Part shown: positions 23,066 to 57,541 of the stretch, in pieces | Layout of the letters: every line of letters starts with the position of its first letter | Numbering within the stretch: the first letter of the stretch is position 1 | The notes under the pieces: model-generated | The model's database searches: none | The model's input: only the letters and a program-made list of their open reading frames with translations | Told to the model about the DNA's origin: nothing | Assembly (NCBI GenBank): GCA_036172245.1 | Contig: JAYWIR010000043.1 | Coordinates: 124,001-188,000, forward strand | Direction of reading: 5' to 3' | DNA: 64,000 nt | DNA from: Raillietiella orientalis | Lineage: Eukaryota | Program-made: the position numbers and the translations under genes

Positions 23066-24612
23066 GGTCGGCCGGCAAGGCAAAATTACCCGTGCCGCGT
23101 TCGAAAACTTTACGCGAATGCACGGTCGTATTGGAACGAATTTCCTTTTCAGAGGATGCCACCCGGGGCTACAATCCTCTTATTGCCGTTTCCGCCTCGT
23201 CCGAGGTTCGCGACGGCAAACCCTCTGTGTACACTGAGGGTAAGCCGCCAGACGCGCGAACCGACAGCAAGGACGGCACGTTCGCGTAGGCGGCGGAGGA
23301 GCAAGCGAACACGCTGGATGAGCGTGAGAACCCCTCTCGCAAGGCCGTGCGAAGGCCGGATCCGGCAAAGAAAGCCGCCACAGGTGAGTAAGACCTGGGG
23401 GCCGGAAGTACATCCTCCACCTCGGAAGCACCCCACAGGAAGTCGGGACGCAAGTCCCAGAAACGCAGGGGGCGCCTCCCCTCCACTAGCGAGGAGGAGA
23501 AGCCGGAAGGAAGCGGCAGCGTGGGAACTCCGCAGGAAGAATTTCCATGCCCGGAAGCCGTCCAGCAGGCCACCCCTATGGAGGAAGGTAAGCAAGCAAT
23601 GGGGTGGAGTCCTCCCTGCAGTCGCCGATCCTGAACAGCGTGCCTTCATGGAGGAGGGCCAACAGGTTGGCGTGACTCCACCTGAGGGTGACTCGCCCGA
23701 AGCGCCGTCACCGATGGAGGAGGGGGACCGGGTGCCTTCACCACCTGTCCCTCCTCCTCCTCCTAGCGTCCCTCACCAGCAGGTGGCGGACGCCGCATCG
23801 CCATCCTCTCAGGACTAACACCTCGGTTCGCTAGTCGCCGCCCGATTCGAACAGCCTGTTGGAACGTCAACAAGCTGCGCGATGACGGCAACAGGCGGGA
23901 CACGGCCGACACCCTGTGTGACTTGCAATGCGGTGCTCGCAACACCTGTGGCGTCGCGTTTTTTATGGAGCCAGCAGTCGCTTCCTTCGTGAAGGACGTA
24001 CGATTCGACAAGGACAGTCTGGTTGGCCAGCTTATCCTTAGGTGGTCGGACTCGATCGACCTTGTCGTGACTAATGTGTATGCTGCGAACGGAGGACGCG
24101 TGTACGGGGAACGTTCCCGGTTCCTTGAAACCTTGAAGCGCGACTGGCTGGCGGATACAAACGTACGCAAGGCACATCTCACTGGTGGGGATTTCAACAT
24201 CCGCCTGCTCTCAGGTGTGCCTTGCAGGCAAAAAGACGCAACCAACGAGTTGTGCGCCGCCATGCGTACGCGCAACTTGCTGGGGGACCTACCGGAAATT
24301 GCTCAAAGCGTACACCACGTCTTCCTTGACGCCAACTCGTGCCCACGGATCGGCAGACGAGGGAAACTTCTGTCGACGCTATCGGACCACCTCCGGTTGA
24401 TAATCGGAATTATGCCACGCGACAAAGGACCACCATCCAGGGCGTGGCGTATGCCAGAAAACTTACGCGCATCTCCGGTGCGGCGGAACATCTCCGTCAG
24501 TTCCTGAGAGGCGTCATCCTCCGCAACCTAGAAGATTGGGACCGCATGAAGGTCTCGGTCAGCGAGTTCTGCGAAGATTTCCTATTGCACCGCCTGCCCC
24601 GGAGATTTGGAG
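23066..24612 (+). mobile_element. L1-A: 5'-truncated, degraded L1/Tx1-like element (ORF1 C-terminus plus APE endonuclease), interrupted by L1-B
   Basis: RSKTLRECTVVLER and PMEEG repeats; ORF1 stop at 23816-23818; EN motifs TCGVAFF, VTNVYA, GDFN, SDH in ORF 23923-24507. Left boundary approximate. Confidence 0.85.
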
Positions 24613-28109: not shown

Positions 28110-28121
28110 GGACGTGTTTTT
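28110..28121 (+). promoter_or_regulatory. Conserved 5'-terminal RGACGTGTTTT motif, candidate internal promoter element (also 26730, 36238, 55640 on +; 53248-53259 on -)
   Basis: Found 2-13 nt inside the 5' junction of five elements whose 5' UTRs otherwise differ. Confidence 0.6.
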
Positions 28122-28195
28122 CCTTCACTCCCCAAAGAGTAGTAGGAAAGCGCTTTTTCTTCTGTGTGGTGTTTTGTGTACATCGTCGGTGTCCA

Positions 28196-29946
28196 ATGGC
28201 CACGACGCCAGAGGACACCGCAATGGAGGTGGGAGTGGGGGAGGCTAGTTCGCCCCCACAGCCTACTGGAGCAGGGGCAGCCGCCCCGGAATCATCCCCG
28301 GCCACGCCGAGGACATGGAGCGCCATGGTGGCCGCGCCCAGCGCAGAAGCCATGGCGGAGATGGCCGCATACAAGGCCTCCGGGTACAAGCCTTCGCTTG
28401 TGTACCAGGTAGGCAACTTGTTCGACGGCCGGACAGCGCGCGCCTTCAGCAAAGCGTTGAAGGACGCGAATGTCACAAAAAAGGATCTGGACGGCCTCTC
28501 CGTCCTCAGCGGCGGGCAGCGGGTCGAGGTGGTCTGCAAAGATGTCACCTTGGCTCACCGCCTTATCCATGCGCCGCTGAACGTAGACGGCCGCAAGATC
28601 CTGCCAGTATCTATGGACCGCTCCGTGGTGGTCCACATGACTGGCATCACCAGCCGCATGACGCGGTCAGCGGTTGGTGAGGAATTAAGAAAGTACGGTG
28701 AGGTGCACGCACTGTGGCCGAAACCCTCCATTTTCGACGGCTTCGATAGCCTTTTTGGTGGGCAGGCTGCAGCGCGGGTCACCGTACGGGAGAATTGTGG
28801 GCTTCCCCACAAACTACAGGTGGCGCAAGAAAACGTCGACCTGTGGTATGTAGGGAAGCCCCGGTATTGCGGCCATTGTGATACCGTGGGACACCTACGT
28901 AAAAGGTGTCCCAATATACGATGCCATTTGTGCGGGGAGCGGGGCCACGTTCGGCGCGTGTGTCCCAAACGCCCCACCCCGGTTCCCCCTGCCGCGAAAA
29001 AAGCGCAGGGGAAACGTGCTTCAAAGGTCTCTAGACCTAAAGTAGAAAAGGGCCAGCACAAGCTGCCAACACCTCAACCTCCGGCGCCTAAGCCGGAGGA
29101 TAAACCTTCTGAAACGGTGGAAGGCGAAGAGGGATGGCAGCTTGTAGAGGCCAGAAAGCCGAGAAAACTCCCACCCGCGGAGAGCAAAGAGCGCAAGACG
29201 GCCGGTAAGCCGAAAAAACCCGGTCCGCGCTCGAAAACTTTGCGCGAGTGCACGGTGGCACTGGAACGAATCGTCGTTCCCGAGATTGCCACCCGGAGCG
29301 TCGATCCTCCCCTTGCCGTTTCCGCTGCGCCCGAGGCTCGCGACGGCGAACCCTCTGTTTACACAGAGGGTGAGCCGCGCGACATAGCGGCGGTCGAAGC
29401 CGCGGACGCCGCGTTCGCGCAGGCGGCGGAGGAGCTCGCGGTCACGCTGGCCGAGCGTGAGAACCTCTCGCGCAAGGCCGTGCGAAGGCCGGCTCCGGCG
29501 AGGAAGGCCCCCAAAGGTGAGTTAGACCTGGGGGCCGGAAGCACATCCTCCTCCTCGGAGGCACCCCCCAGGAAGTCGGGACGCAAGTCCTAGAAGCCCA
29601 GGAGGCGCCTCCCTCCACCCGCGAGGAGGAGAAGACGGAAGCCGTCGCCAGCGTGGGAAATTCGGAGGAGGAATTCCCACGCTCGGAAGCCGTCGATGCG
29701 GCCACCCCCATGGAGGAGGGTGAACAGGGGGGTGAAGTCCCCCCTGCAGGCGCCGACCCAGAACAGCCCGCCCCCATGGAGGAGGGCGAACAGGTAGGCG
29801 CGACTCCACCTGCGGGTGATCCGGCCGACGGGCCGGCACCGATGGAGGAGGGGGACCAGGTGCCTTCAGCACCTGACCCCCCTGCTCCACCTAGGGTCCC
29901 GCCCCAGCAGGTGGCGGACGCCGCACTGCCATCTTCCCAGGAGTAA
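28196..29946 (+). pseudogene. L1-D ORF1 (gag-like nucleic-acid-binding protein, 2 CCHC knuckles)
   Basis: MATTPEDTAMEV...CGHCDTVGHLRKRC...CHLCGERGHVRRVC; premature TAG at 29591 and a 1-bp frameshift; ends PSSQE*. Confidence 0.9.
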
Positions 29947-30363
29947 CACCTGGGCTCGCCAGTCGCCGTCGGATTCGCGCGGCCTGGTGGAATGTCAACG
30001 GGCTGCGCGACGACGGTAACAGGCGAGATACAGCCGACACCCTGCGGGAGTTCGACCTGGCCCTGTTGCAGGAGATCCACGTGATCACCGCGGCAGACGT
30101 CCAGGAGATCGAGACGATCGCGGGGGGTCGGCTGTTTGTCACCCGGGTGCGCCGGGGCGTTTATTATAAACTATCCGGGAACAGGGTTCCCGGACAAAGG
30201 GGAAAACAAGAGACGAAGGGGGTGGGATCCCCGACACGCAGGTCGGTATGCCGAAAGTCCGGAACGGGAGGGAAGGGACCACAAACACACTACTATATAA
30301 AAAAATAAAAGAAAAATATGGAGGGCAGGGGACAGGGGTCTTTGGTAAATGCGTTCCTTCCTT

Positions 30364-33300: not shown

Positions 33301-33926
33301 ACCCGACAATGCAGGTGATCGTCGAGGAACACATGGTCCGGCAAAGCACGCATTCCGGGATCGTCGGCCAGCAAATTCGAGGCGTGCACCGACGCGCACA
33401 CCTCGTTCACCAGCCGTTTCTCCCGGCGACGGTGAGACTCCTCCGATAGCGCGTGGACGTTGAAGTCCCCGGCTACGAGGTGAGCCACGTCGGGGCCGGA
33501 GTTGCTGAGCCAGCGGTCGCGCAGTCTCTCGAAAAACTCCAGTTTCTCGGTGTGACGCGCGGAGCCGCTCGGCGCGTACACGTTCGTGACGACAAGGTTG
33601 ATCGATTCGGACCACTTGAGAACAAGTTGGCCCACACGACCTTCCTCGTCGAAACAAACGCTCCGCACTGCTCCCGCCACCCTGCCCCGGACAAGGAATG
33701 CGACTGCGCAGGTATTCTGGGAGCCTGACCTCCAATGGAGCGTCCCGCCTGCGCGAACTTGCAGATCGGCCGCTTGCTGCTCGGAGAGTGCGTCAATCTC
33801 CTGCAGCAGGGCCAGATCGAAGTCGCGCAAGACGTTGGCAACCAATCGCCTCTTCTCGTTGTCCTGCAGCCCGTTGACGTTCCAACAGGCCACTCGGACG
33901 CGACGGGAAGAAGCGAGACCGCGCAT
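30364..33926 (-). pseudogene. L1-E ORF2 (APE endonuclease, RT, CCHC)
   Basis: WNVNGL, LLQE, GDFN, SDH, KAPGEDG, DLRKAFD, YADD, CKRCGEVETLPHLLLD; stop at 32142 and frameshift near 31060. Confidence 0.95.
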
Positions 33927-33931
33927 TGCTG

Positions 33932-35866
33932 CTACGGACATGGAAGTGCGTTCCTCGCCCCGTCCGGCGAGGCATCAGCCGGGAGCACGGCGGATGAGGT
34001 AGCGCAAGCGCTTCCTGTCCCCGCCGCGCCGCTCGCGGCCGGCTCGGTCGAGTCGAGGACCATTGCCTCGGGCTCCGAAGAGCATCGAGAACCGTTCCCG
34101 GCATCAGGCTCTTGCCTGGCAAGTTTTGGCTTGCGCGCAGCCCTGGCCTTGACCGGGGCTTGGCGAGCCTTAGCGCTGCCCTCGGACTCCACCTCGGAGT
34201 CCGAATTGCGCGCGCGCGGCGGCGGGCGTTTCGCCTGCCTCTTTGTTTGCTGGCAGCCCGGAGCTGGTCCAGCACTCTTAGAGGGCGCCTTCGTCGCCGA
34301 TCCCCCTTTCGGGGTCACGGCTTCGGCAGCTCCCCTCTCGCCGCGGGTGTTTGCGGCGGCGCGCGCGGCGGCAGCAGAGGCTTTTCCTTGCGCCTTTCTG
34401 GGCGCGCGGAGTTGCCTCTTCACCCCGCCTACCTTTTGGATCGGGAAGTGGGAAGGATCGCGCGGTTTGCGCTCCTTCTTTCCCCCGACGAAGGTCCAGC
34501 CATCCTCGCCGCCTTCCTGTTTGTCCCGGTTGGGCGCGAGGGCTTCCAGGGTCCTTCGCATCCTTTCCAAGGCCTCGGATGCGGCGATGGAGGCCAGTGT
34601 CTCCTTCGTCACGTCTGCCTTCTGCACCTCCTTACAGGAAGGTGTGAGCAGAGTGGCGGGATTCTCGTGGGTTGCGCGAGGCTTTTCAGCCTTTGCTGGC
34701 ATTCGGCCCGCCGTGGCCGGCTTGCCTGTCGCGGGCAAAGGGGCGCGCGACCCCTTTTTCGACGCTCCGGTGGTCTTCCCGGGCGTGCCACCGCTATTTC
34801 GCTCCGGAGCGAGAGCGGACGGAAGCGGCGGTGGTTTTGCAGCCTGCCCGATGTTATCGGCGGGCTGGGTCGCTCAAGGCTTTACTGAAGCAGCCTGGAG
34901 GAGCTTCTTGTCCTTTCGCGCAAGTTTTGGTGGAGCATTGCTCCGAGAATCGCCCGCGCAAGCGGACTTTTCACTTCTCCGCTGAGAATGCTCGTTCGCG
35001 CCTGATTTCTTCCCCGACGACGGGGCGGATGGAGTCGGCGCGGACGGCGATGTTGCGGGGAGGTTTCTCGCCCTCCTCTTTCGTTTCAGCTCGGCGCACT
35101 CGTTAATCGAGTGGCCGAGCAGCTTACAGTATCGGCAACTGCGTGTTGGGCACTTCCGCGGACGGTGGCCCTCCTTCCCGCAGTTGCCGCAAGCGGGGGT
35201 TTGCCCGGCAAACCGGAGATAGACGACGACGTCACCGAGGAGGATCTGCGAAGGCATGAGCCTCCGGTCGTCCATGGTGACGCGCGCCGTCGCGAGTCCG
35301 CAAGAGAGGCGCGCGACTTTATCGATCGGGTTCGCGCGCCTCCACATCGCGTGCACTGTGGCGAACGCCTCGAGTGCAACAATGATGTCGCGGTCCGTTA
35401 TTCTCGGCCTAATGCCCGAGAGCTGGACCACGAACGATTGATCCAGGGCCGAGGGGACGACCTCCTTACCCCTGATTTTCAGGGGGGTTCGCAGTAGGCG
35501 CTGGACGAGGGCTGCATCCTTGCAGTGCACCTCCCAATGGCCTACCGCGCTCACTGGCATAATTGCCAGAAGATCGTCCTCTCGGACCCCTACGCGTTCC
35601 AGCTCGCTCCAGAGCTGGTTGCCCGTCCCATCCCGGTACGCGGCACTGACCTTGTAGGCCAGAGGGGGGTTGTAGCCGTTAGCGGCGTACGCCCGCAGTT
35701 CTGCCTCGTCGGGTGAAACTCCGTGAGCCGCCGCTGCCTTAGCAACGGCGGCAAAACTTCTCGCTGGAGGCGAGGGACGATCGGTGGAGGCTTCCGCTCC
35801 TCCCGAAGAAGGTCCTGCGACGCAGGGTGATTCCTCCACCTCCATTTCTGCGGGCACTGGCTTCAT
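33932..35866 (-). pseudogene. L1-E ORF1 (gag-like, 2 CCHC)
   Basis: MKPVPAEMEVEE...RSFAAVAK...CGNCGKEGHRPRKC...CRYCKLLGHSINEC; one in-frame TGA at 34874-34876. Confidence 0.9.
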
Positions 35867-36309
35867 TTCCAAATGAAAAATCCAACCACACCCAAAAGGA
35901 ACAACCGCAAAGAAGCACCAAAGACGGAGCGCCAATGGAGGGGGTCGGCTGTACTGGCAATGCGGCATCCGCAACACCTGCGGGGTCGCGTTCTTCGTGA
36001 AGCCGGCCATCGACGCTGCCGTGAAGGGCGTGCGCTTCGATGACGACGGTCGGGTCGGTCAGCTGACTCTCGGCTGGTCCGACTCGATCGATCTGATCGT
36101 CACGAATGTGTACGCCCCAACCGGTCAAAAGGGATACAGCAACCGTACCAGGCTGCTTGAATCCTTGAAGCGCGACTGGCTGGCGAACACGAGCGTGCGG
36201 AAGGCTCACCTGAAAGCGGGAGATTTCAATCGAGTGCGGACGTGTTTTCCTTCGCTCTCGTATCCGTGCTTTCATCCGCTTCATCTTGGCGTCGTACATT
36301 TTGACGACG

Positions 36310-38232
36310 ATGTCGACCCAACTTGAAGCTACTGAAGTTGGAGGAACAGCATCCGGATCTGCAATCGCGGAACCGACGGCCGCCTCCACTTCGTCTTTCT
36401 CGCCGATGGAGAGGAGTTTTGCTGACGTTGCTGCCACAGCAGCCGTCAAAGGGAAACCACTCGACGAGTCGGAGTTGCGAGCATACGTAGCCCAAGGCTA
36501 TAGACCTGCTCTCCGATATAAGGTGAGTGGCTTTCTTTCTGCGCGCGACGGAAATCAGTTCAACGATGAACTGACCCGTGTTGGCGTGCGGGAGGAGGAC
36601 CTTCTCGCCATTATGCCCGTAAAAGACATGGGCTATTTCAAGGTGCGTTGCAAAGACGCTGCACTGGTGCAACGTTTGCTGCGCACCCCGTTGTCGATCC
36701 GTGGCCAGAAGGTCTTCCCGGCCGCCATGGACGACTCATTTGTGGTGGAGATTTTCGACATCGAGTCGGAAATCTCCGATACTGATATTCGGAACGCGTT
36801 GGCGAAATTCGCCACGGTCCATGCGCTGTGGAGGGTGCGTAGCAACCTCAAGGACTTCCTGTCCATACAAAGCGGAGTCGCTGGAGTCCGGCTTACAATG
36901 CCGGACCGCCGTCTGCTGCCCACCAAACTACAGGTGAAAGACACGGTCGTTCACCTGTGGTTCGTGGGCAAAGTAAAAACGTGCGAGCAATGCGGGAAGG
37001 AGGGGCATTGTTTGGATAAATGCCCCTCTGGAAAATGCCGTTATTGCAAACTATCCGGGCACCAGTTGAAAAATTGCCCGGATCTTTTGCGAAAAAAGGC
37101 AGCCGCGGAGCTCCATTTTAAAAAACAAAACGCGGATAAAAAAAAAAAATCTGCGAAAAACCTGCAGACCCCACGGCAGAAATTCGGTAAAAACGCGAGG
37201 CGGAATGTCGCCCCAAAGCAGCAGGACACCTCGCACGCGAAGCCCTGCGCACCCCCTCTGCCGGCAGGGGAGCCGCAAAAGAAAGGGTGCGGGGAATCCG
37301 GAGCAATGGTAAGTCCCCCTAGGCGCAATAGCTGTCCTTCCCAAGCACGCCCGGCTCTCTCGGAGTTCGAGCAACCGGCGTGGACGCCAATGGACAACGG
37401 CGGTAAGGACACTTCCAGTACCGTCAGATCCATTCCTTCACCTCCTGCAGTGGCTGAGAAGCCCAAATCGGGTAAGAAGTGTTGTGCCGTTTCGACTTCG
37501 AAAGTCGGCAAAAAAAAATCCGCGTCGCGATCCAACACCGCGGAAGCGGAGAAAAATCTCACGCCGTCGCAGTCGGAGAGCAAGCTCTCGACTGGCGCGG
37601 ATGCCATGCCAACGAAGGGATTAAAAGCCCTTCCGAAAGCAGCGTCCATGACGAGCGTGTCGGAGCCATCGAAAGTGCTCCCGTCCAAAGACGCGGATGG
37701 CTTCAAAGATGGCCATGGAGCACAATCTCCATTTACGGCGCCACGCGAAGTAAGGAACCGTAATGAAGTAAAGAAGACTTCAGCAAAGGTCCCTCGTGCA
37801 ACTGCGCGTGAGCACGCTGAAAACGCGCGCGCCGGGAAAGCAGCCGTCACCAAAAGCGATGCTCTGGTGACGGAAAACGAAAACAGGACAGCTGTCAATC
37901 CAGCAGAACCTGTCACTGCTTCGCGGAAGGCCGAAACCCGATCGAACATGCGCCGGTCGGACTCCGAAATGGATGCCGTTCCGATCAGCGAGACGAGGAC
38001 AACTCGTTCAAAAGCGTGTGCGCGCCGATCAAAAGTAGGCAGCCAGGCAACGCTCGCCGCGAAGCAACGCGAAGTCTCCACGAAACCCGACGGGGTTCAG
38101 CCTGGCGTGGAGGCATTACTTGCATGCAGCACGACAGAGGACGGTGGCGACCGTCCCCTCCAGCCAGTCGTGCTGCTCGCCGTCTGCTCGCCGAATAAAG
38201 CGAGCAAAAAGCCGCCACCTTCCCAGCAGTAA
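36310..38232 (+). CDS. L1-F ORF1, intact gag-like protein (~640 aa; RRM-like region, 2 CCHC, long basic/low-complexity tail)
   Basis: Uninterrupted frame 36286-38232, first ATG at 36310; RSFADVAA, CEQCGKEGHCLDKC, CRYCKLSGHQLKNC. Confidence 0.9.
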   Translation: MSTQLEATEVGGTASGSAIAEPTAASTSSFSPMERSFADVAATAAVKGKPLDESELRAYVAQGYRPALRYKVSGFLSARDGNQFNDELTRVGVREEDLLAIMPVKDMGYFKVRCKDAALVQRLLRTPLSIRGQKVFPAAMDDSFVVEIFDIESEISDTDIRNALAKFATVHALWRVRSNLKDFLSIQSGVAGVRLTMPDRRLLPTKLQVKDTVVHLWFVGKVKTCEQCGKEGHCLDKCPSGKCRYCKLSGHQLKNCPDLLRKKAAAELHFKKQNADKKKKSAKNLQTPRQKFGKNARRNVAPKQQDTSHAKPCAPPLPAGEPQKKGCGESGAMVSPPRRNSCPSQARPALSEFEQPAWTPMDNGGKDTSSTVRSIPSPPAVAEKPKSGKKCCAVSTSKVGKKKSASRSNTAEAEKNLTPSQSESKLSTGADAMPTKGLKALPKAASMTSVSEPSKVLPSKDADGFKDGHGAQSPFTAPREVRNRNEVKKTSAKVPRATAREHAENARAGKAAVTKSDALVTENENRTAVNPAEPVTASRKAETRSNMRRSDSEMDAVPISETRTTRSKACARRSKVGSQATLAAKQREVSTKPDGVQPGVEALLACSTTEDGGDRPLQPVVLLAVCSPNKASKKPPPSQQ

Positions 38233-41200
38233 TGCGGGGAATCGCGTCTTCTCGTCGTCTGTCGGTAACGTGTTGGAATGTGAACGGACTGCAGAACGAC
38301 GAGAAGAGGCGATTAGTAGCCAACGCCCTGCGCCCCTTCGACCTCGCGCTGCTGCAGGAGATTCACGTAATCTCCGACGAGCAGGCAGCCGAAATCGAAG
38401 AGCGCGCAGGCGGAACGCTACATTGGCGGTGCGGCGGAGCACACACGTGCGGCGTCGCGTTCCTCGTAAGAGGAAAAATGGCGGAAGCGGTGCGCAGTGT
38501 TCGTTTCGATGACAACGGACGGATAGGCCAGCTTGTCATCAAGTGGTCCGTGTCCATCGATCTCGTCGTTACGAACGTCTACGCGCCGAGTGGCTCTCGC
38601 TACCTCGAAGAAAGAGTAGCTTTCTTTGGTGAGGTGCAGAGCCAGTGGCTCAACAACTCCGGCTTCCAAGTGGCGCACCTCGTCGCTGGGGACTTCAACG
38701 TCCGCCTGCTCTCCGACGATTGGAGCCGCCCGAGGGAGCGCGCGCTGCCCATCGAGATGTGCGCGTCCGTGCACGCCGCCAACTTGATGGTCAGCGAACC
38801 TGGGATGGGAAGATCGCTCGATCACGTTTTCCTCGATGAAAACCTGCATTCGCGTGTGGGTAGGAGAGGAAGATTGTTGACTGAGCTTTCTGACCACCAC
38901 AGGTTGGAGTTTGAGATCCTTCCGCCAGGCAGGGGGCCTCCGTTGCAAAGCTGGAGGATGCAGGCGGATTGGCTTAGCCAACCGGAGGCTGCGGAGCATC
39001 TACGTGGATACCTCCGGGGCTTTGCCATTCAAGAACTTGCGGACTGGGACGATCTCAAAAAATCTGTCCGCGAGTTCTGTTGCCAATTCCCCTTGCACCG
39101 GCTTCCACGCGGTTTCGGAGAGGGCGTGGCCAACAGTAGAGACTTTCTGCAGGCCCGCACGTTTTCGAGACGCGCGGATGTCGGGCGTCTCGCAGAGTAC
39201 AAGGCGAGGGCCGAGCGCCAGGTCTGGCAGTCCGGAGCAGCAGGCCTGTTGGACGACAAGGGCCAGGAATGTTCGGCCCCAGCCGAAGTACGCCGCATTG
39301 TGAGACGCTACTACTCCTCGCTCTACGCGGAATCCCCGACGGAGGATATTCTTTCTGAGATACTCCTGTCTCAGGATGCTCGTGTTGTCGGCGAGGAGGA
39401 ACGCGAACGTCTCGACGAGCCCTTCACGGCGGATGAATTTTCGTCCGGCATCGCTGGGCTGAAGAGACGAAAGGCGCCAGGCGAGGATGGGCTCCCTGCA
39501 GAGTTTTATCAGTGCTTTGCAGTGGAGCTCATTCCCTTGATGCTGAAACTCGCGACGCTGATGAGTGAATCCGGGAATGTCCTTGAATCCTTCCGCTCAG
39601 AGAAGGTGCGTCTCCTGCCGAAAGGCGGAGACTCGCGCCAACTTAACAACTGGCGTCCGATCACCTTGGTGAACTCGGACGTCAAGTTGTTTTCCAAGCT
39701 GTGGGTCGCGCGGTTAGGAAGAATCGCGGAATCTGTGTTGAGCCCGGAACAAACCTACGCGGTTCCGGGACGATCCATGGAGGCGAACATCCTTTTCGCG
39801 CGTACATGGATGCAGCTGCAGGAAGTTGTGGCGCAGCAAAGCCAGGCTGCTGCGAAAGTCACTGCCGCAGGCAAAAAGAACAGGCGCCGACGGCAGGAGG
39901 GAACGCAAGGTGCCTTGGCGGTCGCGGTCGATCTCCACAAGGCGTTCGACTGCGTAAACCAGAAGCTGCTTTTGGAGCTTATGGAACGCCTTGGGTTCCC
40001 GGCGCAACTCCTGCTGTATTTGCGCGCGTGCTGGCACCACGCGCTAACCTGCATTACTTTCAGCGGCTGCCGCGTGTATGGTATTCCCGTTCGTAGGGGC
40101 ATCCGACAGGGCGACAGCTTAAGCCCGTTGCTCTTCAGCATCTTCTTTGAGTTGATGCTAAGAGCATACAGGCTGACGCTGTCTCACTTGCCAAGCTCCT
40201 GCCCGGGAACGCCTGCCGTGGCCGCCTACGCTGATGACCTGCTTCTTCTGCTCCCCATGTCCACCCCGGCGTCCAGTGTCGAGGATTTCTTCGACCTGAT
40301 TCGTCGAGGAGCGGGCGTGAGCGTGAACAGAGAGAAGAGCGTGGTCGTTCCTGTGGGTACGTCGTGGGAGGGGCAGTCCGACTGGATCCGCCTGGGGATC
40401 CCCACGGGCGGGTACTTTGAGTACCTTGGCGTTCCGTTGTGCGCTTTCGGCGCAGCCGTAGCGAGGACGGACTGTCTTCAGAAAGCAGAGTTGACCATCA
40501 GCCCGTTCTTTAACGGCAAGTTTACCTTGCAGGAACGGGCGACTATTTGGAACACCTTTGTGGCCCCCCTCCTCCGTCCCCTGTTTTTTGTTTGCGACCT
40601 TCCCTATGCGGCAAAACAGCGGGCTAAACGCCTGCTCAGGAACGCTCTCTGGGGTCCGGCGAGATCCAGGATCCGCTTTAAAGATTTGTCAGCTCCTCGT
40701 CGGGATGCTGGTTTGGGTATCCTGACAATGGAGCGAATCGGACTGCAGGTGCAGTTCCGACTGCAGGCACTGTGTGCCCAGCTATGGACATCCCCCCTGT
40801 GTGTGCCAGCTCGCATTCTCCTGCGGAGATGCGCCGGCAGTGGAAGATTTCTCTCGCTTTTGCCGGGCACTCAATACAGGAAGCGGGGTTTCGGGTTTCC
40901 ATTGCGGCAGTTGACCGCACTTCTGGAAGCACACTCTTGGATCTCCTGCCGCCCAATGAACTTTGAAGCTTGGCGGCAGGAGTCTGTTGAATCCTGGGCG
41001 ACGTTCCAAGGAATACGCCCTGAAGATCTTCGCCCCCTGCGCCAATTTTTTCCACGATCCTTGGGAGAAGGACTGCAGGACGAGGTGAAGTTTTCTACCC
41101 TGGCTGCCACGCCTCTTGCCGCAGCGCTGTCTGCCCTTAGGGCGAGAAACGACAGTTACCAACCGGCGAGGTGGGAGGTTTCCTGCACGATAGCGGGAAG

Positions 41201-41825: not shown

Positions 41826-42147
41826 TCATTGCCCTACCCTCCATAAACTAAATTTGCATTTTCTTTTTACACCCGCGTCCCCATAGGCTCCGGAACATTT
41901 TAGGTGCTCATCGTATAAATCCCCGTGAGTACGGAGCCTAACCAAAAACCCGTTACCCTTCCCTCCAATTTTTGATTTTTGTTTGTTTCCCCTCATTCCC
42001 CCCACGCTGCGAGCGGTTTGTTTACCAGGCTTGCGTTCCGATAATTTTTCTATGTTCTCTGTCGTTCTCTTGGTTGGGAACATGGTCCCTGACCAGTTTA
42101 TTATTATTAATAAACGCCCCGGCGTGGCAAGGTGATAAATTTCAATC

Positions 42148-45100
42148 TCCGCCTACTAACAGGTGAGCCGGAAACACAGGTGAACGCGATGAACGAGTTG
42201 TGCGCCGCCATGCGTGCGCGCAACTTGTTCGCGGGTGAGAGGGGAATGGTCCGTAGCATCGACCACGTCTTCCTCGACGCTGACCTGTGTTCACGGGTCG
42301 GCAAACGGGGGAGGGTTGCGTCAACGTTGTCGGACCATTCCCGGTTAATTTTCGAGATGCGGCCTCGCGACAAAGGACCGCCATTCAGAGACTGGCGTCT
42401 GCCGGGGGACTGGACGCGACTCTCAGGTGCGAAGGAACACCTTCGCGAATACCTGAGAGGCGTCACGCTCCGGAATCTCCAAGACTGGGACCTTTTTAAG
42501 GAATCGGTCCGGGAATTCTACGAGCAGTTCCCCCTGGACCGCCTGCCCTCCGGATTCGGCGAGGGTCCTTGCAACCATCGGGCCTATTTACAGGCCCGTA
42601 GGTACGAGCGAACCCCTAAAGTCCGTCGCCTGGCCGAGTACCGCGCCGGGGCCGAACGCCAAGCCTGGCAATCCGAATCGGCCAGCTTGCTGGACGACCA
42701 GGGCCGGGAATGTTCGTCCCCGGCGTCGGTACTGCATCTCGTGCGGAGTTATTATTCCTCCCTTTACGCCAGGGCGCCCCCGGATCAAGATGCCTCTCGG
42801 CTCTTGCTTCCGGATGGTGCCCCGGCAATAGGGGAGGAGGAGTCGTTAAGCCTCGATGAGCCTTTTACCACTGGCAAAATTCTCGCCGGTATCAAAAGGC
42901 TCAAGAGACGGAAAGCTCCAGGGAAAGACGGCTTGCCCGCGGAGTTCTATCAGAGCTTCGCGGAAGAGCTGGCACCCCTGCTGCTTCAGCTGAAAAGGCT
43001 GATCCGAGACGAAGGCGATGTTCCCGCCTCGTTTCGGTCAGCCAGAGTGAGGCTCTTTCCGAAAGGGGGAGACCTTAGGAATTTGAACAACTGGCGTCCG
43101 ATCACGATTGTGAATACGGACGCCAAGTTGGTTGCCGGGCTATGGGCTTCGCGTCTGGGGCAGGTGGCGGAATCCATTATTAGCCCGGAGCAGAGATATG
43201 CTGTTCCCGGGCGAAGTATGGATGCCAACCTCTTCTTCGCGAGCACGTGGTTGTACGCGCAGAGGTGTCGAAAGGAAGGGAAAGAAAAATCGGCAACCCC
43301 ACTTTGGGGCCGCCAGCAGGGCAGGGAATGGACTCCCGGGCGGGGAAGGGGGCCTTAGCGCTCGAAGTCGATCTCCATAAGGCGTTCGACTGTGTTGACC
43401 AGGGGCTTTTGTTGGAGCTCCTGGGTCGCATGGGCTTCCCACCCTCCTTGATCAACTACCTGCGCTCCTGCTGGCGCCATGCCATAATTTCCGTCTCTTT
43501 CAGCGGTCAGAAGGTGCATGGCGTGCCAGTGCGGCGGGGCATCAGGCAGGGAGATAGCCTGAGTCCCCTGCTCTTCAGCACCTACTTTGAGTTGGTGCTG
43601 AGAGCCTACAGGGTGACTTTGGCCTTCTTGCCTAGCTCGTGTCCCGGCACGCCCGCCGTAGCAGCCTATGCCGACGACCTTCTGCTCCTGTTACCTATGT
43701 CCACCCCAGCGAAGGCGGTCGGAGACTTCTTCGATCTGCTCAGCCGTGGGACCGGACTGCAGGTCAACAGGGCGAAGTCGTCGGTGGTGCCAGTAGGTGC
43801 GGCGTGGGCAGGGCAGCAGGACTGGGTCCGTCTGGGGATCCCCACGGCGAGGTGCATCAAGTACCTTGGTGTGCCTTTGGGTGACTACTCCCCTGCGGAA
43901 GCGTGGTCCAGCTGTCTTCAGAAAGTTGAGACGGCGATCGGCCCGTTCCTGGAAGGCAAGTTTCACTTGCCGGAACGGGCCGCGGTTTAAAACGCCTTCG
44001 CGGCCCCCATCCTCCGCCCCTTGCTTTTTGTTTGCCCCGCCCTTAGAGAATGCAAAAAGAGGACGAAGGACCTCCTCCGCATCGCCCTTTGGGGCAAAGG
44101 GAGGCCCCGAGTCCCTCTGCAGGACTTGTGCGCTCCGCGTCGGGACGGCGGCCTTGGCCTCCTGACGCTGGAGCGCGTGGGAATCCAGCTGCGGTGGCGA
44201 ACCCTCGCCATCGCAGCGAAGATGTGGAGCACCCCTTGGTGCGTTCCGGCCCGCCACCTTGCCAGGCGTGTGTCCCGATGCGAAGGACTCGCGTCGTTTC
44301 TTCTGTGCCCTGGCCGGAAGATCCGAAGATGCGGCCTTATGCTCGGACGCATAGCAACCTTGGCGAAGACGAACGGTTGGATGGTTTGTGGCCCCGCCAA
44401 CTCCTCCGCCTGGTTGGAGGAGTCTGCTGGCACATGGGCTAAGCTGAACCGGAGAAGTGAAAACCACATGAACTGCCTTCGAATCGGCCCATACGCCAAC
44501 CGCACCCTGCGGGAAATACTGGAATTCCCCCGGAGTCGCAGGTGGGCGTTGACGACCCCCCTTGCTACGGCGATGCCCTACCTCCTGAGGGCGCTCCAGG
44601 ATCGCCAGAAGCCGAGGTGGAAAGTCACCTGCCAGATCGCAGGCAGAGAGAAGATGTTAAGCGGCTGGACCACAAAAGAACTGGCGGACGCCACGACCCC
44701 GAGCGTCCAGCCGCGTGGATTAATGAGATGGGGCGAGCTGCTCGCCATCCCTACGGATGTGCTGAAGTGGCCGTCGGTACTAAAGGAATCCAGGATCCTG
44801 CCCCTTAAGTGGCAAGAGTCGGCGTTGCTACTGCTGCACTGGGGATTACCCTGCAACGCACGCCGCTTCCACTGGACAAGGGGAACTGTGGATCCTGAGT
44901 GTGCCAGGTGCGGAGAGCGGGAATCGCTCTCCCACCTTATTGTGGACTGTGCTGCCATCCGACCCCTCTGGGAACGGTTCGGGGCGACCCTAGAGCTCCC
45001 TACAGGCAGCACCCCCAGAGACGTTCTTCGGCCCCTCTTCGTGAAGGACGCACTGCAGCCAGCCGCAGCCATCGCAGCCTTGTGCTGTGTCCGTGGCATC

Positions 45101-45368: not shown

Positions 45369-45493
45369 ACGCTGGGCTGCGTCCCGGCGTCCCGGCAAGT
45401 CCAGTGCATATGGCCGTGAGCGGGGCCTTGTACCGCGGATGTAGAGTTGTTTTTTTTTAAAAAATAAACGCCCCGGGCGTACCCGGGTGTAAA
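45369..45493 (+). promoter_or_regulatory. Conserved structured 3' end: CUGCGU stem-loop, AATAAA, terminal hairpin ending GGGTG
   Basis: Equivalent modules at the 3' ends of L1-B, C, E, G and I, and degenerate in F. Confidence 0.75.
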
Positions 45494-45875
45494 CCTCCAA
45501 GGCTGGCAAGAAGGCCGTAAGGCGTCCGGCCTCCCCTCAGGAATCCCCCACTTCCGACCCCGAGGTGCAGGCCTGAAGCACAGCCTCCCTTTCCACGGCA
45601 CCGTGCAAGAAGGCTGGACGTAAGTCCACAAAGCCAAGGAAGCTCGTCTCCCCCTTCGAAGGGGAAGAAATGGCTTCCGCAAGCGAGGGTGCCATGAACG
45701 TGGGAAACCCTCGGGACCCGTCGCCCTAGAGACTCCCACGCGCGGACACGGAGGGGATGGAGGGAGTGGAGGCCGAATAGGTGCCTCAGGTGCCTGAGAA
45801 GTTCGAAACCCCCATGGAAATCCCGCCCGCCTCGCAAGAGGAGGGCTCCCCTACACCTTAATCTTCCCAGCAGTA

Positions 45876-47336
45876 ATGCCAAGAATCACCACCCGCCGTC
45901 GTCTGCGCATCGCCGTTTGGAACGTGAATGGCATGACAGACGCCGGCAGGAGACGAGACATATTTGCCCTTCTGGAGTCCTACGACCTTGCGCTGCTGCA
46001 GGAGATCCACGTGATCTCTGCAGAACCAGCGCAAGAGATCGAAAGGATCTCCGGAGGACGGCTATGGTACAGGTGTGGGAGAGCGAGAAGTTGCGGTGTC
46101 GCCTACCTGCTTCGGCCAGCCGTCGAGACCGCGGCTCGGGGCGTGCGGTTCGACGATCACGGTCGTGTCGGCCAGCAGACTCTCAGGTGTTCCGACTCGA
46201 TCGATCTGATCGTCACGAACGTGTACGCACCGAGCGGCAAGGACCTGATGAGCAGGAGGGCGAGGAAAGAGTTTTTCCTTGCCCTCCGGAGAGACTGGCT
46301 GACCGAAGAGGCGTGCGGAATGCCCATCTGGTTGCAGGCGATTTCAACGTTCGCCTGAAACCAGATGAGCAGAATCCCGAGCGTGACCTGGTGAACGAGG
46401 TGTACAAGGCGGTGCACACCTGCAATTTGTTGGCCAGTGCACCGGAGATGGTAGACAGCATTGAACACGTGTTTCTTGACGAGCTCCTGTGCCCTCGCTT
46501 GGGCAGGCGTGGCAAGTTACCGTGCGAGCTCTCCGACCATCGCTTGCTAGTCCTCGAGATCCATCCGCGCGACAGGGGCCCCCCCTCGTCAGCGTGGCGT
46601 CTCCCAGGGGACTGGCTGACGCTCGCGGACGCGGCGGAACATCTCCGCACGTTCATACGGAACTTCAGGCTACGGACACTCCAGGATTGGGATCGCTTCA
46701 AGCAGTCGGTCCAGGATTTCTGCCACCAGTTCCCTCTGCACCGCCTACCTACGGGTTTTGAGACCAAAGTACGTAACGAAGAAGCCTACCTGCATGTCCG
46801 TCGTTACGCGAGGACCCCCGACATCCGCAGGCTGGCGGAATACAAAGCGGGAGCTAAGAGGCAAGCCTGGCAGTCCGGATCGGCCAGCTTACTGCACGAT
46901 CAGGGCCAGGAGCACTCGGCACCTGCCCAAATTTGCGGCCTGCTTCGGAGTTACTACTCCTCCCTGTATGCCAGGGCACCTCCGCAGAGGAACGTCTAAC
47001 GACTCCTGGTTTCGGAAGGCGCTCCAGCGATCGGGGAGGAGCAGAGAAATATTCTCGACGAGCCTTTGACGATGGACGAGATCCTCTCGGCCATCGGAAA
47101 GCTCAAGAGGCGAAAGACTACAGGGGAGGACGGCCTGCCCGCGGAGTTTTATCAAACTTTCGCGGCTGAGCTTACTCCCCTGGTACAGCAACTCACCTTG
47201 CTGATACGCGAAACAGGTGACGTTCCCGCCTCGTTTCGTTCGGCAAAGGTGCGGCTCCTCCCTAAGGGAGGAGATCTGAGGAGCATGAACAACTGGCGTC
47301 CCATCACAATAGTGAATGCGGACGCCAAGTTGCTGG
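45876..47336 (+). pseudogene. L1-C ORF2, 5' part (endonuclease and RT N-terminus)
   Basis: MPRITTRRRLRIAVWNVNG, LQE, GDFN, SDH, NWRPITIVNADAKLL; several lesions. Confidence 0.9.
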
Positions 47337-50500: not shown

Positions 50501-51129
50501 CGTTTGCCGACCCGTGAACACAGGTCGAAATCCAGGAAGACGTGGTGGATGCTGCTGACCATTTCCGAAAGATCCTCTAACAAGTTGCGCGTGCGCATGG
50601 CGGCGCACAACTCGTTAGCCGTCCGTTCCTGTGCGTGTGGCTCACCTGAAAGCAGGCGGAGATTAAAGTTCCCCGCTATCAGGTGAGCCACGCGCACGTT
50701 CGCCTCCACCAGCCAGTCGCGCTTCAGGGTTTCCAGGAACGCCTTACGTTCCTGGTACCTGGTAGGACCGCTCGGAGCGTACACATTTGTTACGACGAGG
50801 TCGATCGTGTCGGACCACCTGAGAATCATCTGGCCGACACGACCGGCTTCGTCGAAGCGCACGCCCTTCACGGCTGCGTCGACTGCCGGCTTCATGAAAA
50901 ACGCGACGCCGCAGGTGTATCGGGTTGCGCATTGCCACATCAACCGTCCCCCTGCGATCCTTTCGATCTCCTGGGCGTTCTCCGCGGTGATCACGTGGAT
51001 CTCCTGCAGGAGTGCCAGGTCGAAGTCACGAAGGGTGGCGGCCGTGTCCCGTCTGTTGCCGTCGTCGCGCAGCCCGTTCACGTTCCAGCAGGCCACGCGT
51101 AATCGACGGCGACAGGCGAGCCCATGTGT
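47542..51129 (-). pseudogene. L1-G ORF2 (APE endonuclease, RT, CCHC)
   Basis: WNVNGL, LQE, GNFN, SDH, KAPGEDG, DLHKAFD, YADD, CIRCGERETLLHLLVDC; several stops. Confidence 0.93.
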
Positions 51130-53173
51130 TACTCCTGGGAAAGTGGCAATGGGGCTCCCGCCACCTGGTCGGGCGGGACGGATGGAGGCATGGGGGCACC
51201 GCCCAGCGGTTCTCCCACCTCCATGGGGGCCGATTCCTCGGCGGACCGCAAGGGTTGAAGGGAGCATGCTTCACGCACCTGCTTCCCCTCTTCCATGGGG
51301 GCCGATTCCCCGACTGCGATGGACGGCAAGGGGGAGCGGTTCTCAGCTGTCTGCTCCCCCTCTTCCATGACCATCTTCTCCGCAGGCTCCACCGGTGGAA
51401 GGGGGAGGCAATGCTCTACCTGCTCCCCCTCCTCCATGGGGGTGGCCGGCTGCTCGGTGGCGGAGGGTGGGAGAATTCCTCCCTCCGTTCCCACGCTGCC
51501 AGCTTCCCCCTCGGCTGCCGGTGCGTCCCCCTCGCTCTTCGTCGGGATGCGCCTCTTGGGATTCCTGGACTTCCGTCCAGTCTTCTTCGGAGGCGCCTCC
51601 GTGGAGGAGGACGCACTTCCGGCATCCGGGTCGTGGTCACCTGTCGGAGATGCCCTGGTCGCTGCTGGCCTTCGCAAGGCCTTTCGCGCGCCGTTCTCAC
51701 GGTCGGCGAGTTCGGCCGCGAGCTCTTCCGCCGCCTGCTGGAAGGCGGCCTCGTCGATCGCGGCGAGCGCGTCGCGCGGTTCCCCCTCTGTTTGCACAGA
51801 GGGTTCGCCTTCCGTGATCGCGTTATCGTCGGCGTCGACGCGGGGGAAATCTCCCCCGGTGGCGGTCTCGGGTACCTCCACACGCTCCAAAGCGACCGAA
51901 CATTCGCGGATCAACGCGCGGCGTTGTCTCCTATTTAAAGGAGACGTCGCGGGTTCCGCTGTCGATCCTTCGGTTTTCTTTGGTTTCTTAGCTTTAGGCT
52001 TCGCCTTCTGCCAGCCTTCGCTCTTTTCAGCGTGGTCGGTAGATTCCACGACCGGCGTTTGCTGTACGGGCTCGGGCTCCGCCTATGGGTTCCGCTCACG
52101 GGTGCCTTCGCAGGGTTTTCCGTAGCCTCCGCGCGTTTCCCTTTGGCCTTTTTCAAGGCAGCGGGAGCCAGGGGTTCGCGCTTCGGGCACACTTTGCGGA
52201 GGTGGCCCTTCTCTCCACAGTGGAAACACTGGATGTGAGGGCACCGCTTTTTCAGGTGCCCTGTGGCATCACAGTGTCCACAGTATTTGGGCTTGCCCAC
52301 GTACCAGACGTCGAAGGTCTCGTTGCCGACGTCTAGTTTGTGGGGTAGCCTACTGTTTTCGTGGACGGTTACACGCGCACCAGCCATGCCACTAAACAGT
52401 CTTCCGTAAATCTGGAAGACGTTGGGCTTGGGCCATACCTCGTGAACCGTTCCGTATTTTCCGAGTTCCTCCTGCACGTCGGCTTTCGACATGCGGGGGG
52501 TGACTCCCGTGAGGTGCGTCACCACGAAGCGATCCTCCGTTACCGGGAAAATCTTTCGGCCTTCCAGTGTGATTGGCGCATTCAGGAGGTGTTGAGCAAG
52601 GCTTGCATTTCTGCAAGTCAGCTCCACCCGCTGACCACCACTCAACACGGAAAGACCTTCCAGGTCTTCCTCTTTTACGTTCAACCGCTGCAACTCCCTT
52701 TCGAAGTTGCGAGCGGTGTTCCCGACAAACAGATTGCCTACCTTGTATATCAGGGACGGCTTGTGTCCCTGCTCCAGGTAGGCTTTCTGCTCGGCGAGGG
52801 CTGCAGGAGATGGAGCTGCAGCCACTGAACTCCAGGTCCTCGGCGATGCCGAAGACGCATTCGAGGGTGCAGGTGCCCCTTTTTTGAAGGAGGCGGTTGC
52901 GCCCTTTTCCAGGGTTGCGGTTGTCCCCTTTTTCAAGGAGGCGGTTGCGCCCTTTTCCAGGGTTGCGGTTGACCCCTTTTTCAAGGGGGCTTTTGCCCCC
53001 TTTTTCAAGGGGGCCTTTGCCCTCGCTTCCGAGGCGGCGGTTGCCCCCTTTTTCAGGGGTGCGGCTGCCGTCGCCTCCGTGGGGGCGGTTGCCTCCACCT
53101 CCGTAAATTGGGGAGAGGAACAAGCCTCTCCCCCTCCTATATCCATCGCGGTGTCCTCAGGCATTTCTGCCAT
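51129..53173 (-). pseudogene. L1-G ORF1 (gag-like, 2 CCHC, KKGA and PMEEG repeats)
   Basis: MAEMPEDTAM...CGHCDATGHLKKRC...CFHCGEKGHLRKVC; frameshift near 52090; ends PLSQE*. Confidence 0.9.
52875..53060 (-). repeat. Coding minisatellite (24-bp unit) in L1-G ORF1
   Basis: Encodes APLKKGA / APLKKGS / ATLEKGA / ASLKKGT / ASFKKGA octapeptide repeats; absent from the other ORF1s in the window. Confidence 0.85.
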
Positions 53174-55628: not shown

Positions 55629-57541
55629 TGCTCTAGGGCGGACGTGTTTTCTCGGTGCTCCTCGTGCCAGGAAGTCTCCCCGTCGTGTGGTTCTGTGGTC
55701 GATCAGGCAGCAATGCATGACCCGACCACCAGGGATGGAAAGGGGGTAGCGGCAACTCCGTCCTCAGTGGCGATGGAAGGCGAGGGGGCGGCGACAACTT
55801 CGCCCCCAGAGGCGATGTAGATGGAAGCATCGTCCCCCAAAAAATCGGTCCCCGTTACAGCGCGGGCGTGGAGCGCCGTTGTGTCGGGGCCATTGTCTGC
55901 AGCCGCGGCGGAATTGTCTGCGTATGTGTAGAAGGGGTATAACTTCTCACTGTTTTACAAGGTAGGCAATGTTTATTCTTTACAGAGTGCGCGCGCCTTC
56001 TCGAAGGGGATGCGAGCTCTTCATGTGAAAGAGGAAAAGCTCAGCGCTATGATCATCCTCAGCGGGGGTCAGTACGCTGAGGTCATCTGCAAACAAGCAG
56101 AGCTGGCCTAACGACTGCTTAAAACCCCCGTGGTGATGGGGACGCGCAGGCTTCTTCCTATTGCGGCGGACCGCAGCATGGTGGTCCACCTGTTAGGTGT
56201 TTTTGCGCGGATACGCAAGGAACAGGTTCGTGCAGCGTTGGAGGAATACGTTACGGTCCACGCGCAGTGGACGAAAGTTAGTCCTTTCGAGGACTACACA
56301 GGGCTGGAACACATCCTCACGGCTCTGCGCGTGACCGCTCGGGAGGACTGCACCCTTCCCCACAATCTGGTGGTCGAAGGCGAAACCGTTGATATCTGGT
56401 ATGTGAAGAAGCCGAAATACTGCGGCTTGTGCAATACGGCGGGATACATCAAAAAGAGGTGTCCCAATGTGAAGTGCCAAGTATGCGGAACCATGGGACA
56501 CACGAGGGAGGTGTGCCGTGAAGCAGCAGTGCGGGTGGTTTCCAAGAGAAACCTTAAAAAACGCTCCCGGCTGCTGCAGAAGAGGCTGGCGGCGAAATAT
56601 GCCGCGATAGCTGTGCCAACCGCGCCCAGGACCCAGGCCGCAGCCGAGTCACAGGCGACCTACGCCGGCAAAGTTGAGGGAACCGGTCAGAGACTGGGTA
56701 GCAAGTGGCAACGGCCAGAAAATCAAAGAAGGAAAGGAGGATGAAAAAAAAAATCACCTATGAACGAAGGAAGAAAGAGCAGGGTAGCGCGATAATTAAA
56801 GAATGCAGCGTCGTTGTCGAACGCGTTCCTGATGTTGGCGAACGCTGCCAGAAAGAACTCGCCGCTGCCGACGACCATCCGTCTATTGACTCTGTCAACA
56901 TCGAGGACAGGGAGCCGGCGGCGGCGTCCGTCATCGACATCACCATCGAAGACGAAGCCTTCGAGCGAGCGGCGGAGGAGCTGGCTGACTTCTTGCAGCC
57001 GCCCGCCTCCAAGGCTGGCAAGAAGGCCTTAAGGCGTCCGGCTTCCTCTTAGGAGTCTTCCACTTCCGACTACGAGGTGGATGCCGGAAGCGCTCCTCAG
57101 TTTTCACGGCATTCTGCAAGAAGGCTGGACGTAAGTCCACAAAGCCGAGGAAGATCGTCTCCACCGTCGAAGCGGAAGAGATGGCTTCCGGAAGCGTGGG
57201 TGCCATGTGAGTGAGAAACTCGCTGGACCCGTCGCCCAAGAGACTCCCACGCGCGTACACGGAGAGGATGGAGGAGGTGGAGGCCGATCAGGTAACTCAG
57301 GTGCCTGAGAAGGCCGAAATCCCCTTGGACATCCCGCCTGCCTCGCATGATGCGGGCTCCCCCTCACCTTTATCTTCCCAGCAGTAATGCCGGAAATCTC
57401 CTACCGCTTTCGTCTGCGCTTCGCCGTTTGGAACGTGAACTGCATGACAGACGACGGAGGAGACGAGACATGGCCGCCCTTCTAGAATCTTTCGCTGCTG
57501 CAGGAGATCCACGTGATCTCTGCAGAACAAACGCAAGAGAT
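55629..57541 (+). mobile_element. L1-H: second, more decayed copy of the L1-C family (5' end, ORF1, start of ORF2), interrupted by L1-I
   Basis: 5' TGCTCTAGGGCGGACGTGTTTT matches the L1-C start; ORF1 colinear with L1-C (CGLCNTAGYIKKRC, CQVCGTMGHTREVC); TAATG at 57385-57389. Confidence 0.9.

Follow-up and report, generated by a model that had tools for sequence, protein, structure and literature searches.

The way in which long interspersed elements (LINEs) produce their second protein has long been an open question. In SART1 of Bombyx mori, the two open reading frames (ORFs) are translationally coupled through a UAAUG overlap (Kojima 2005, as cited in PMC5972666, PMC3894237 and PMC2881922). 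Human LINE-1 (L1) translates ORF2 unconventionally (Alisch 2006, as cited in PMC5972666, PMC5009743 and PMC11485995) and independently of an AUG (PMC11485995, PMC5009743), while caliciviruses and influenza B virus use termination-reinitiation at a TURBS, or termination upstream ribosome-binding site (PMC5972666, PMC10275272); further background is given in PMC5203782 and PMC5563155. The L1 evidence for AUG independence comes from engineered mutants. We analyzed a 64,000-nt stretch of Raillietiella orientalis DNA (contig JAYWIR010000043.1, positions 124,001 to 188,000; the window), which holds nested two-ORF LINEs, designated here by letters. In the lineage of copies D and G the AUG of the ORF1/ORF2 overlap has been lost, and we suggest that ORF2 is probably made by a termination-coupled restart needing no AUG, whichever codon serves as the start.

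Loss of the ORF2 AUG in the D/G lineage

An earlier note on this DNA had listed seven junctions, with TAATG in F, C and H, TGATG in I and TAACA in D, A and G, and all of them were found at the claimed positions. Each lies 44 nt ahead of the TGG of the WNVNG endonuclease motif, with ORF2 in the -1 frame. We detected an eighth junction, in E, absent from that list. The pattern CAG-NNN-TRAYN...TGGAAYGTNAA had 996 matches in the genome (210 Mb searched) versus 0 for the reversed control. As had been proposed, the first in-frame Met lies past both the WNVNG and the LQE motifs, at codon 171 in intact D-family copies and at codon 64 in G. Two details of the list needed correction. TAATG is present in C, but ORF1 has already been ended by a TAA 15 nt upstream; the same TAA occurs in 5/8 collected junctions with the C-type ORF2 start, suggesting that the TAATG of C is often not the working stop-start. 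G reads ACA CAT in this copy, but CAT is apparently private, other collected G-family copies having CCT.

TAACA is the master state of the D/G lineage, not decay. It was found in 30/30 nearest D-family copies (a DNA search with 1326 candidates, 40 scored and 30 loci returned at 97-100% identity). A lineage pattern with the flanking bases fixed and the start-column codon left free gave 348 genome matches; among the 100 listed, counted by eye, the codon was ACA in 78, GCA in 13, ACC in 6, and ATA, CCA and AAA in one each, with no ATG. Thus the earlier judgement that random decay is unlikely held, and the ATG that had been named as a possible refutation in young D and G copies was not detected. 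The decay of ACG to ACA, also raised there, is ruled out, since CpG had changed to CA or TG in only 41 of 3060 observations (1.3%) among D copies.

The start column has continued to change within the AUG-less lineage. TAACC accounted for 17/29 matches of a further genome pattern search, and TAGCA for 16/19 genome-wide matches whose first base is not A. The change of TAA to TAG preserves the ORF1 stop, and the ORF2 codon becomes GCA, unlike AUG at all three bases. The TAGCA and TGGCA copies examined (n=17) are old, mostly 83-93% alike, and belong to several subfamily backgrounds.

The D copies are separate insertions. In the 13 copies with a 5' end, the flanks average 82% identity and the bodies 98%, the flank being lower in 78/78 pairs, which indicates independent insertions with a common 5' end at one target site (13/13) and rules out segmental duplication as the origin of the copy number.

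In a 700-nt tree the ACA and ACC copies formed one clade among the AUG families (support 0.82); 72 of the 144 collected junctions had sufficient endonuclease coverage, the TAGCA and AAT copies dropped out, and one highly divergent TAACC copy (L069) fell outside the clade. The ratio of nonsynonymous to synonymous substitution rates (dN/dS) was computed on codons fixed within subfamilies, for 10 pairs among five AUG-less subfamilies. It was 0.03-0.24 for ORF2 codons 2-62 (dS 0.27-0.65) and 0.17-0.47 for codons 63-233, compared with 0.12-0.35 for the controls (three AUG-family pairs and one sister pair). The first ORF2 Met of these subfamilies falls between codons 64 and 178, always past WNVNG and LQE. 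The Met-free N-terminus of ORF2 in the AUG-less lineage is therefore under purifying selection as strong as that of the AUG controls. At codons 3, 8 and 9 all variation is synonymous, an indication that translation starts before codon 3.

These values bear on an alternative in which AUG-bearing relatives copied a defective lineage in trans, with ACA a dead mutation or a product of CpG decay. It would agree with the finding of fully intact D copies in 0/12 fetched, every copy being broken in ORF1 or ORF2, and with module recombination near ORF2 base 190. The purifying selection on both codon ranges and the 1.3% CpG change speak against it; trans copying appears largely refuted by dN/dS already, and we regard it as very improbable. 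The recombination was seen as a change of partner, at ORF2 base 185-192, in the similarity between AUG-less subfamilies (L174-L187), which suggests a recombination or template-switch point at about base 190 and coincides with the place of the E insertion in D at 30137. Codons 2-62 are inherited together with the junction.

Predicted junction structure and possible routes to ORF2

In the termination-coupled restart that we favor, ribosomes would translate ORF1 and terminate, a small share would remain on the RNA, and these would restart ORF2 in the -1 frame at the stop or within a few codons of it. The position of restart would seemingly be set more by RNA structure than by the codon, with a hairpin about 25-45 nt upstream (H1) and another around the stop (H2). 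The restart codon, AUG in the sister families, would have become ACA in the D/G lineage and then ACC or GCA. The start itself may be the ACA-type non-cognate codon or a nearby in-frame near-cognate (ATC, ATT, ATA, ACG or AAG at -7 to -1). Restart on non-cognate codons is possible in vitro, through eIF2D and a cognate tRNA or through 80S ribosomes that remain after termination (PMC5972666), which offers a possible route for ACA, ACC and GCA. Most AUG-less subfamilies have a near-cognate codon at -7, -5 or -1; no position is common to all of them, which rules out a conserved near-cognate start. An in-frame ATG close to the junction was found in 3/56 AUG-less copies, at no common position.

The predicted hairpins are consistent with this reading. 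When 34 clade representatives and two outgroup elements (36 in all) were folded as single sequences, the folds gave H1 at 25-45 nt upstream in most clade members and in neither outgroup element, and H2 with the stop in its loop. RNAalifold found both H1 and H2 in the AUG-less subgroup, where 10/12 pairs are present in every one of the 10 rows, and likewise in the F/I/E subgroup, with both-side changes at three pairs; in the CACAC subgroup it found H1, also with both-side changes at three pairs. In the register of the AUG families, H2 pairs 65% of cells over 34 rows, a value reached in 0/500 shuffles (slid controls, 55% at most). The loop-closing pair sets C opposite the G of ATG in the AUG families, and G opposite C in the AUG-less lineage. 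Nucleotide conservation matches the stems: four-fold sites of ORF1 are identical in five subfamilies at 6/7 positions in the last 20 codons versus 7/22 upstream. A sliding fold profile (20 representatives, 41 windows, the representatives being related and not independent tests) had its lowest mean z at -60 to -12 (-2.25, -2.07) and at +120 to +156 (-2.35).

Several results weigh against this reading. The peak at +120 to +156, below -2 in 12/20 representatives and located in conserved coding sequence, is as strong as H1, so H1 is not unique. RNAalifold gave no consensus structure for the full 34-sequence alignment, because the stem registers differ between families. The stems of the AUG-less subgroup are near-invariant with no both-side change, and thus show no covariation, and the H2 register of the AUG-less lineage, one base off, falls below the shuffles over all 34 rows. 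The CACAC sister lineage is without H2. The third positions of ORF1 are first positions in the ORF2 frame, so the conservation could come partly from ORF2-frame translation upstream of the junction. TURBS motif 1 was not found among the 34 representatives (UGGGA in 1/34), and splice-like signals, discussed below, are retained in the lineage.

The position of the stop varies among the sisters. An unbiased sister search (514 + 1124 matches, 100 of each listed, plus follow-up loci) detected, among the matches listed, one lineage with the stop 9 nt upstream and ATG, ACG, GTG, TTG or ATC as the codon in the same column. A second ATG lies five codons upstream in E and the E-like families; in an old ACG family there is one at four codons upstream. 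Sister-family stops are displaced by -6, -9 or -15 nt. Such stop shifts, upstream ATGs and ACG, GTG or TTG codons are what one would expect if the restart window is relaxed. Further rare junctions with AAT or ACT at the start column (TAAAT, TTACT) were observed in old dispersed copies (L127, L163, L165). In a distant LINE family of the same genome (L118, L128, L130 and others), ORF2 begins with a plain ATG a few bases past the ORF1 stop, and neither hairpin is present.

Of the junctions that have the main AUG-less start, 40/40 retain the ORF1 stop at the junction column, and nearly all tabulated sister junctions have it no more than 15 nt away. This argues against structure-directed internal initiation at the junction, of the internal ribosome entry site (IRES) type and independent of ORF1 termination. 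The near-constant distance from H1 to the ORF2 start although the place of the ORF1 stop shifts by as much as 15 nt, together with the free codon identity, would suit such initiation, and intergenic region (IGR)-type IRESs in LINEs have been suggested as an idea (PMC3894237). Both hairpins are small, however, no pseudoknot was seen, and ORF2 of SART1 and L1 needs ORF1 translation (PMC2881922). We consider internal initiation unlikely, slightly more so than the frameshift weighed next.

The earlier note had offered two explanations, a natural AUG-independent initiation of ORF2 and a -1 frameshift fusion. The first is the best supported, with the lineage-level AUG loss and the selected ORF2, and its mechanism is what we infer here. 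The second would be a non-canonical -1 (or +2) shift in the last 12 ORF1 codons, making an ORF1-ORF2 fusion in which ACA, ACC or GCA is internal. It would explain why the start-column codon is free to become GCA. In most lineage copies the 12-22 codons ahead of ACA are open in the ORF2 frame, which everywhere encodes G-G-G-x-x-x-A-x-F-P-G-(V/I/L), and Drosophila R1B elements have -1 overlaps of 14-59 bp (PMC2718515). No slippery site is conserved, though: the overlap contains a canonical heptamer (X XXY YYZ) three times, in 2/56 AUG-less junctions. The codon ahead of the stop is variable (GAG, GAT, GAA, GAC or GCA), and the last 12 codons contain variable bases at all three codon positions. 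In family C the ribosome stops ahead of the conserved TCCCAG, which is thus no shift site there, and the overlap of the ACC subfamily is just 12 codons long. A frameshift therefore seems unlikely.

A spliced mRNA supplying an AUG, the other refutation named earlier, was examined on DNA, where splice-like signals are present and no spliced retrocopy was detected. If a donor in phase 1 at 29517 were spliced to TCTTCCCAG/G, the acceptor at 29940, ORF1 codons 1-440 would be fused to ORF2, and the fusion protein would start at the ORF1 AUG. The donor of D is perfect and in the correct phase, with an in-frame acceptor. An AG/GTGA core occurs at the homologous place in 32/37 aligned lineage copies (11 more were not alignable), and most families have a pyrimidine tract and YAG ahead of the stop. 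One kept GGT codon is weak splice evidence, because the background four-fold identity is 7/22. Exon sequence upstream of the acceptor was found in 0 genomic copies versus 367 unspliced, in a search with both T at -7 and -6 replaced (T at -7 with another base at -6 was not searched); six single variants and four AUG-family variants were inspected and none was spliced. Spliced L1 RNAs retrotranspose, so spliced copies would be expected (PMC5860796), and their absence counts against splicing without being decisive on DNA alone. In addition, the donor is weak in the G and ACC subfamilies (GTGACC, GTGATA), and AG at the acceptor place is missing from the CACAC sister lineage, part of which is AUG-less too. 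Splicing is, in our estimate, improbable. The candidate spliced copy L173 was rejected: it has lost about 340 nt by a deletion with CCAG microhomology, and its closest intact relative has no GT at the break. A second donor-like site was observed 213 nt past the ORF1 ATG in phase 0 (CAG/GTAGGC in D at 28409, AAG/GTGAGT in F at 36523); splicing there would yield an upstream ORF that is short and shares the stop.

Within termination-coupled restart, a narrower possibility, which we hold tentatively and consider rather doubtful, is that the two-hairpin RNA holds the post-termination ribosome and ORF2 starts on any loop codon (ACA, ACC or GCA). This would be a natural, selection-maintained start on no AUG-like codon, possibly with no initiator tRNA. 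If true, the loop-codon start would be the in vivo counterpart of the non-cognate reinitiation known in vitro and in mutated L1.

The window and its elements

From about 22.6 kb onward, the window consists of nested related LINEs, with a full-length D split by E (antisense) and by F (Table 1). ORF1 of D in the window is interrupted by a premature stop at 29591, and it lacks 1 nt compared with intact copies.

Table 1. Features of the junctions and of copy D, with positions counted from the first letter of the window
Feature	Position	Strand	Remarks
D junction TAACA	29944..29948	+	ORF1 stop overlaps ORF2 codon ACA, -1 frame
G junction TAACA	51127..51131	-	G ORF2 51129-47839
A junction TAACA	23816..23820	+	older, decayed copy
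F junction TAATG	38230..38234	+	AUG sister family; ORF2 open 1017 codons
C junction	45859..45878	+	ORF1 stop TAA 45859-45861, then TAATG 45874-45878
H junction TAATG	57385..57389	+	
I junction TGATG	61453..61457	-	
E junction	33924..33934	-	TAG stop 6 nt upstream, CAATG at 33928-33924
Predicted upstream hairpin H1	29896..29919	+	CCGCC 29899-29903 pairs with GGCGG 29913-29917
Predicted junction hairpin H2	29936..29954	+	CCCAGG / CCTGGG, TAACA inside 7-nt loop
Splice-donor-like AAG/GTGAGT	29517..29522	+	phase 1 of ORF1; partner AG at 29939-29940
Copy D 5' end and 5' untranslated region	28110..28195	+	inserted into ORF1 of related element
D ORF1	28196..29946	+	583 codons in intact copies; putative CCHC knuckles
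D ORF2 codons 1-64	29946..30137	+	endonuclease start with WNVNG and LQE, no Met; broken by antisense copy E
D ORF2 second piece	35904..36230	+	interrupted by copy F
D ORF2 third piece	42138..44971	+	remaining endonuclease, reverse transcriptase, C-terminal region
F end region	42115-42135		AT-rich run and ATAAACGCCCCGG-like motif
D end region	45460-45490		AT-rich run and ATAAACGCCCCGG-like motif
E end region	30140-30175	-	AT-rich run and ATAAACGCCCCGG-like motif

ORF2 encodes an APE endonuclease (PF03372, E 1e-12) followed by a reverse transcriptase (PF00078, E 3e-18). Its closest solved structure is human L1 ORF2p (E 2.5e-44; R2, E 2e-13), few clades being represented among solved structures. 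A C-terminal zf-RVT match (E 0.007) is under the cut-off, and zf-CCHC is above it in ORF1 of G only (E 7.6e-5). According to these matches, the elements are probably L1/Tx1-like LINE retrotransposons with a two-gene RNA. In a protein search, the nearest relative, from a short contig, had 56% identity across 58% of the query length, and the others 30% at most. A metagenome scan with the F endonuclease gave 395 pattern matches, none confirmed, and no junction from other species. No Rfam family matched at gathering score anywhere in the window.

The D-family copies all occupy a single site within the ORF1 of a related family (13/13; position 28110 in the window; L031-L042). F was found 2468-2469 nt after D at several places in the genome, and this constant distance indicates that F targets one site in ORF2 of D. 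The 3' ends of F, D and E are seemingly not poly(A), with an AT-rich run followed by a common ATAAACGCCCCGG-like motif. At 944-22565 of the window, a 5.7-kb unit is repeated in tandem about four times, the copies being 99% identical, with 12 longer ORFs that have no Pfam match and no Rfam match in the unit; three other ORFs of the window are likewise without a Pfam match.

Comparison with known two-ORF systems

The clade provides a natural series in one column (ATG, GTG, TTG, ACG, ACA, ACC, GCA), which also varies the stop by 0 to 15 nt and the hairpins between present and absent, and is therefore testable with short reporter inserts. ATG-based annotation would score such lineages as dead or trim off the endonuclease. 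We found no direct report of a natural AUG-less LINE ORF2, in literature searches that mostly did not cover older papers. Some R1/TRAS elements have Met-less overlapping ORF2s.

The elements resemble Tx1- and Zepp-type members of the L1 clade in an ORF1 with putative CCHC knuckles, the APE endonuclease-reverse transcriptase ORF2 and the insertion at one fixed site in related elements (13/13); within the searches made, no AUG-less ORF2 was found reported in Tx1- or Zepp-type elements. Human L1 is the closest relative with a solved ORF2, and its ORF2 translation is reported to be AUG-independent. Unlike human L1, in which the AUG is kept in nature and a 63-nt spacer separates the two ORFs, the D/G lineage has lost the AUG naturally, over several amplification waves, and has a stop-start overlap.

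The clade of SART1 is R1-like, whereas the elements described here are L1-like. SART1 is likewise a two-ORF LINE in which the ORF1 stop overlaps the ORF2 start in the -1 frame and RNA structure lies by the junction, and the sister families have exactly TAATG or TGATG, with the AUG overlap in F, H and I. The D/G lineage differs in having no AUG at the stop overlap (0 ATG in the 100 listed of 348), and its best conserved predicted structures are found around the stop and upstream of it. The structure of SART1 is downstream; a candidate for such a structure here would be the folding peak at +120 to +156.

With TURBS the junctions share tolerance of non-AUG codons and a narrow stop-to-start window, and they may share a stem-loop at a set distance upstream of the stop-start, H1 being predicted in three subgroups but in no consensus over all 34 rows; the viral starts are AUG in nature. 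A complement to the presumed tip of 18S helix 26 in this genome occurs in 0-5 of the 34 representatives, none of it common. Since both the AUG and motif 1 are absent, the D/G lineage is not a member of the UAAUG and TURBS classes as defined. Taken together, the sequence comparisons show an AUG loss that is lineage-wide, with ORF2 under selection, and the D/G lineage probably has a natural variant of termination-coupled ORF2 translation, with a mechanism that we infer from the junctions.
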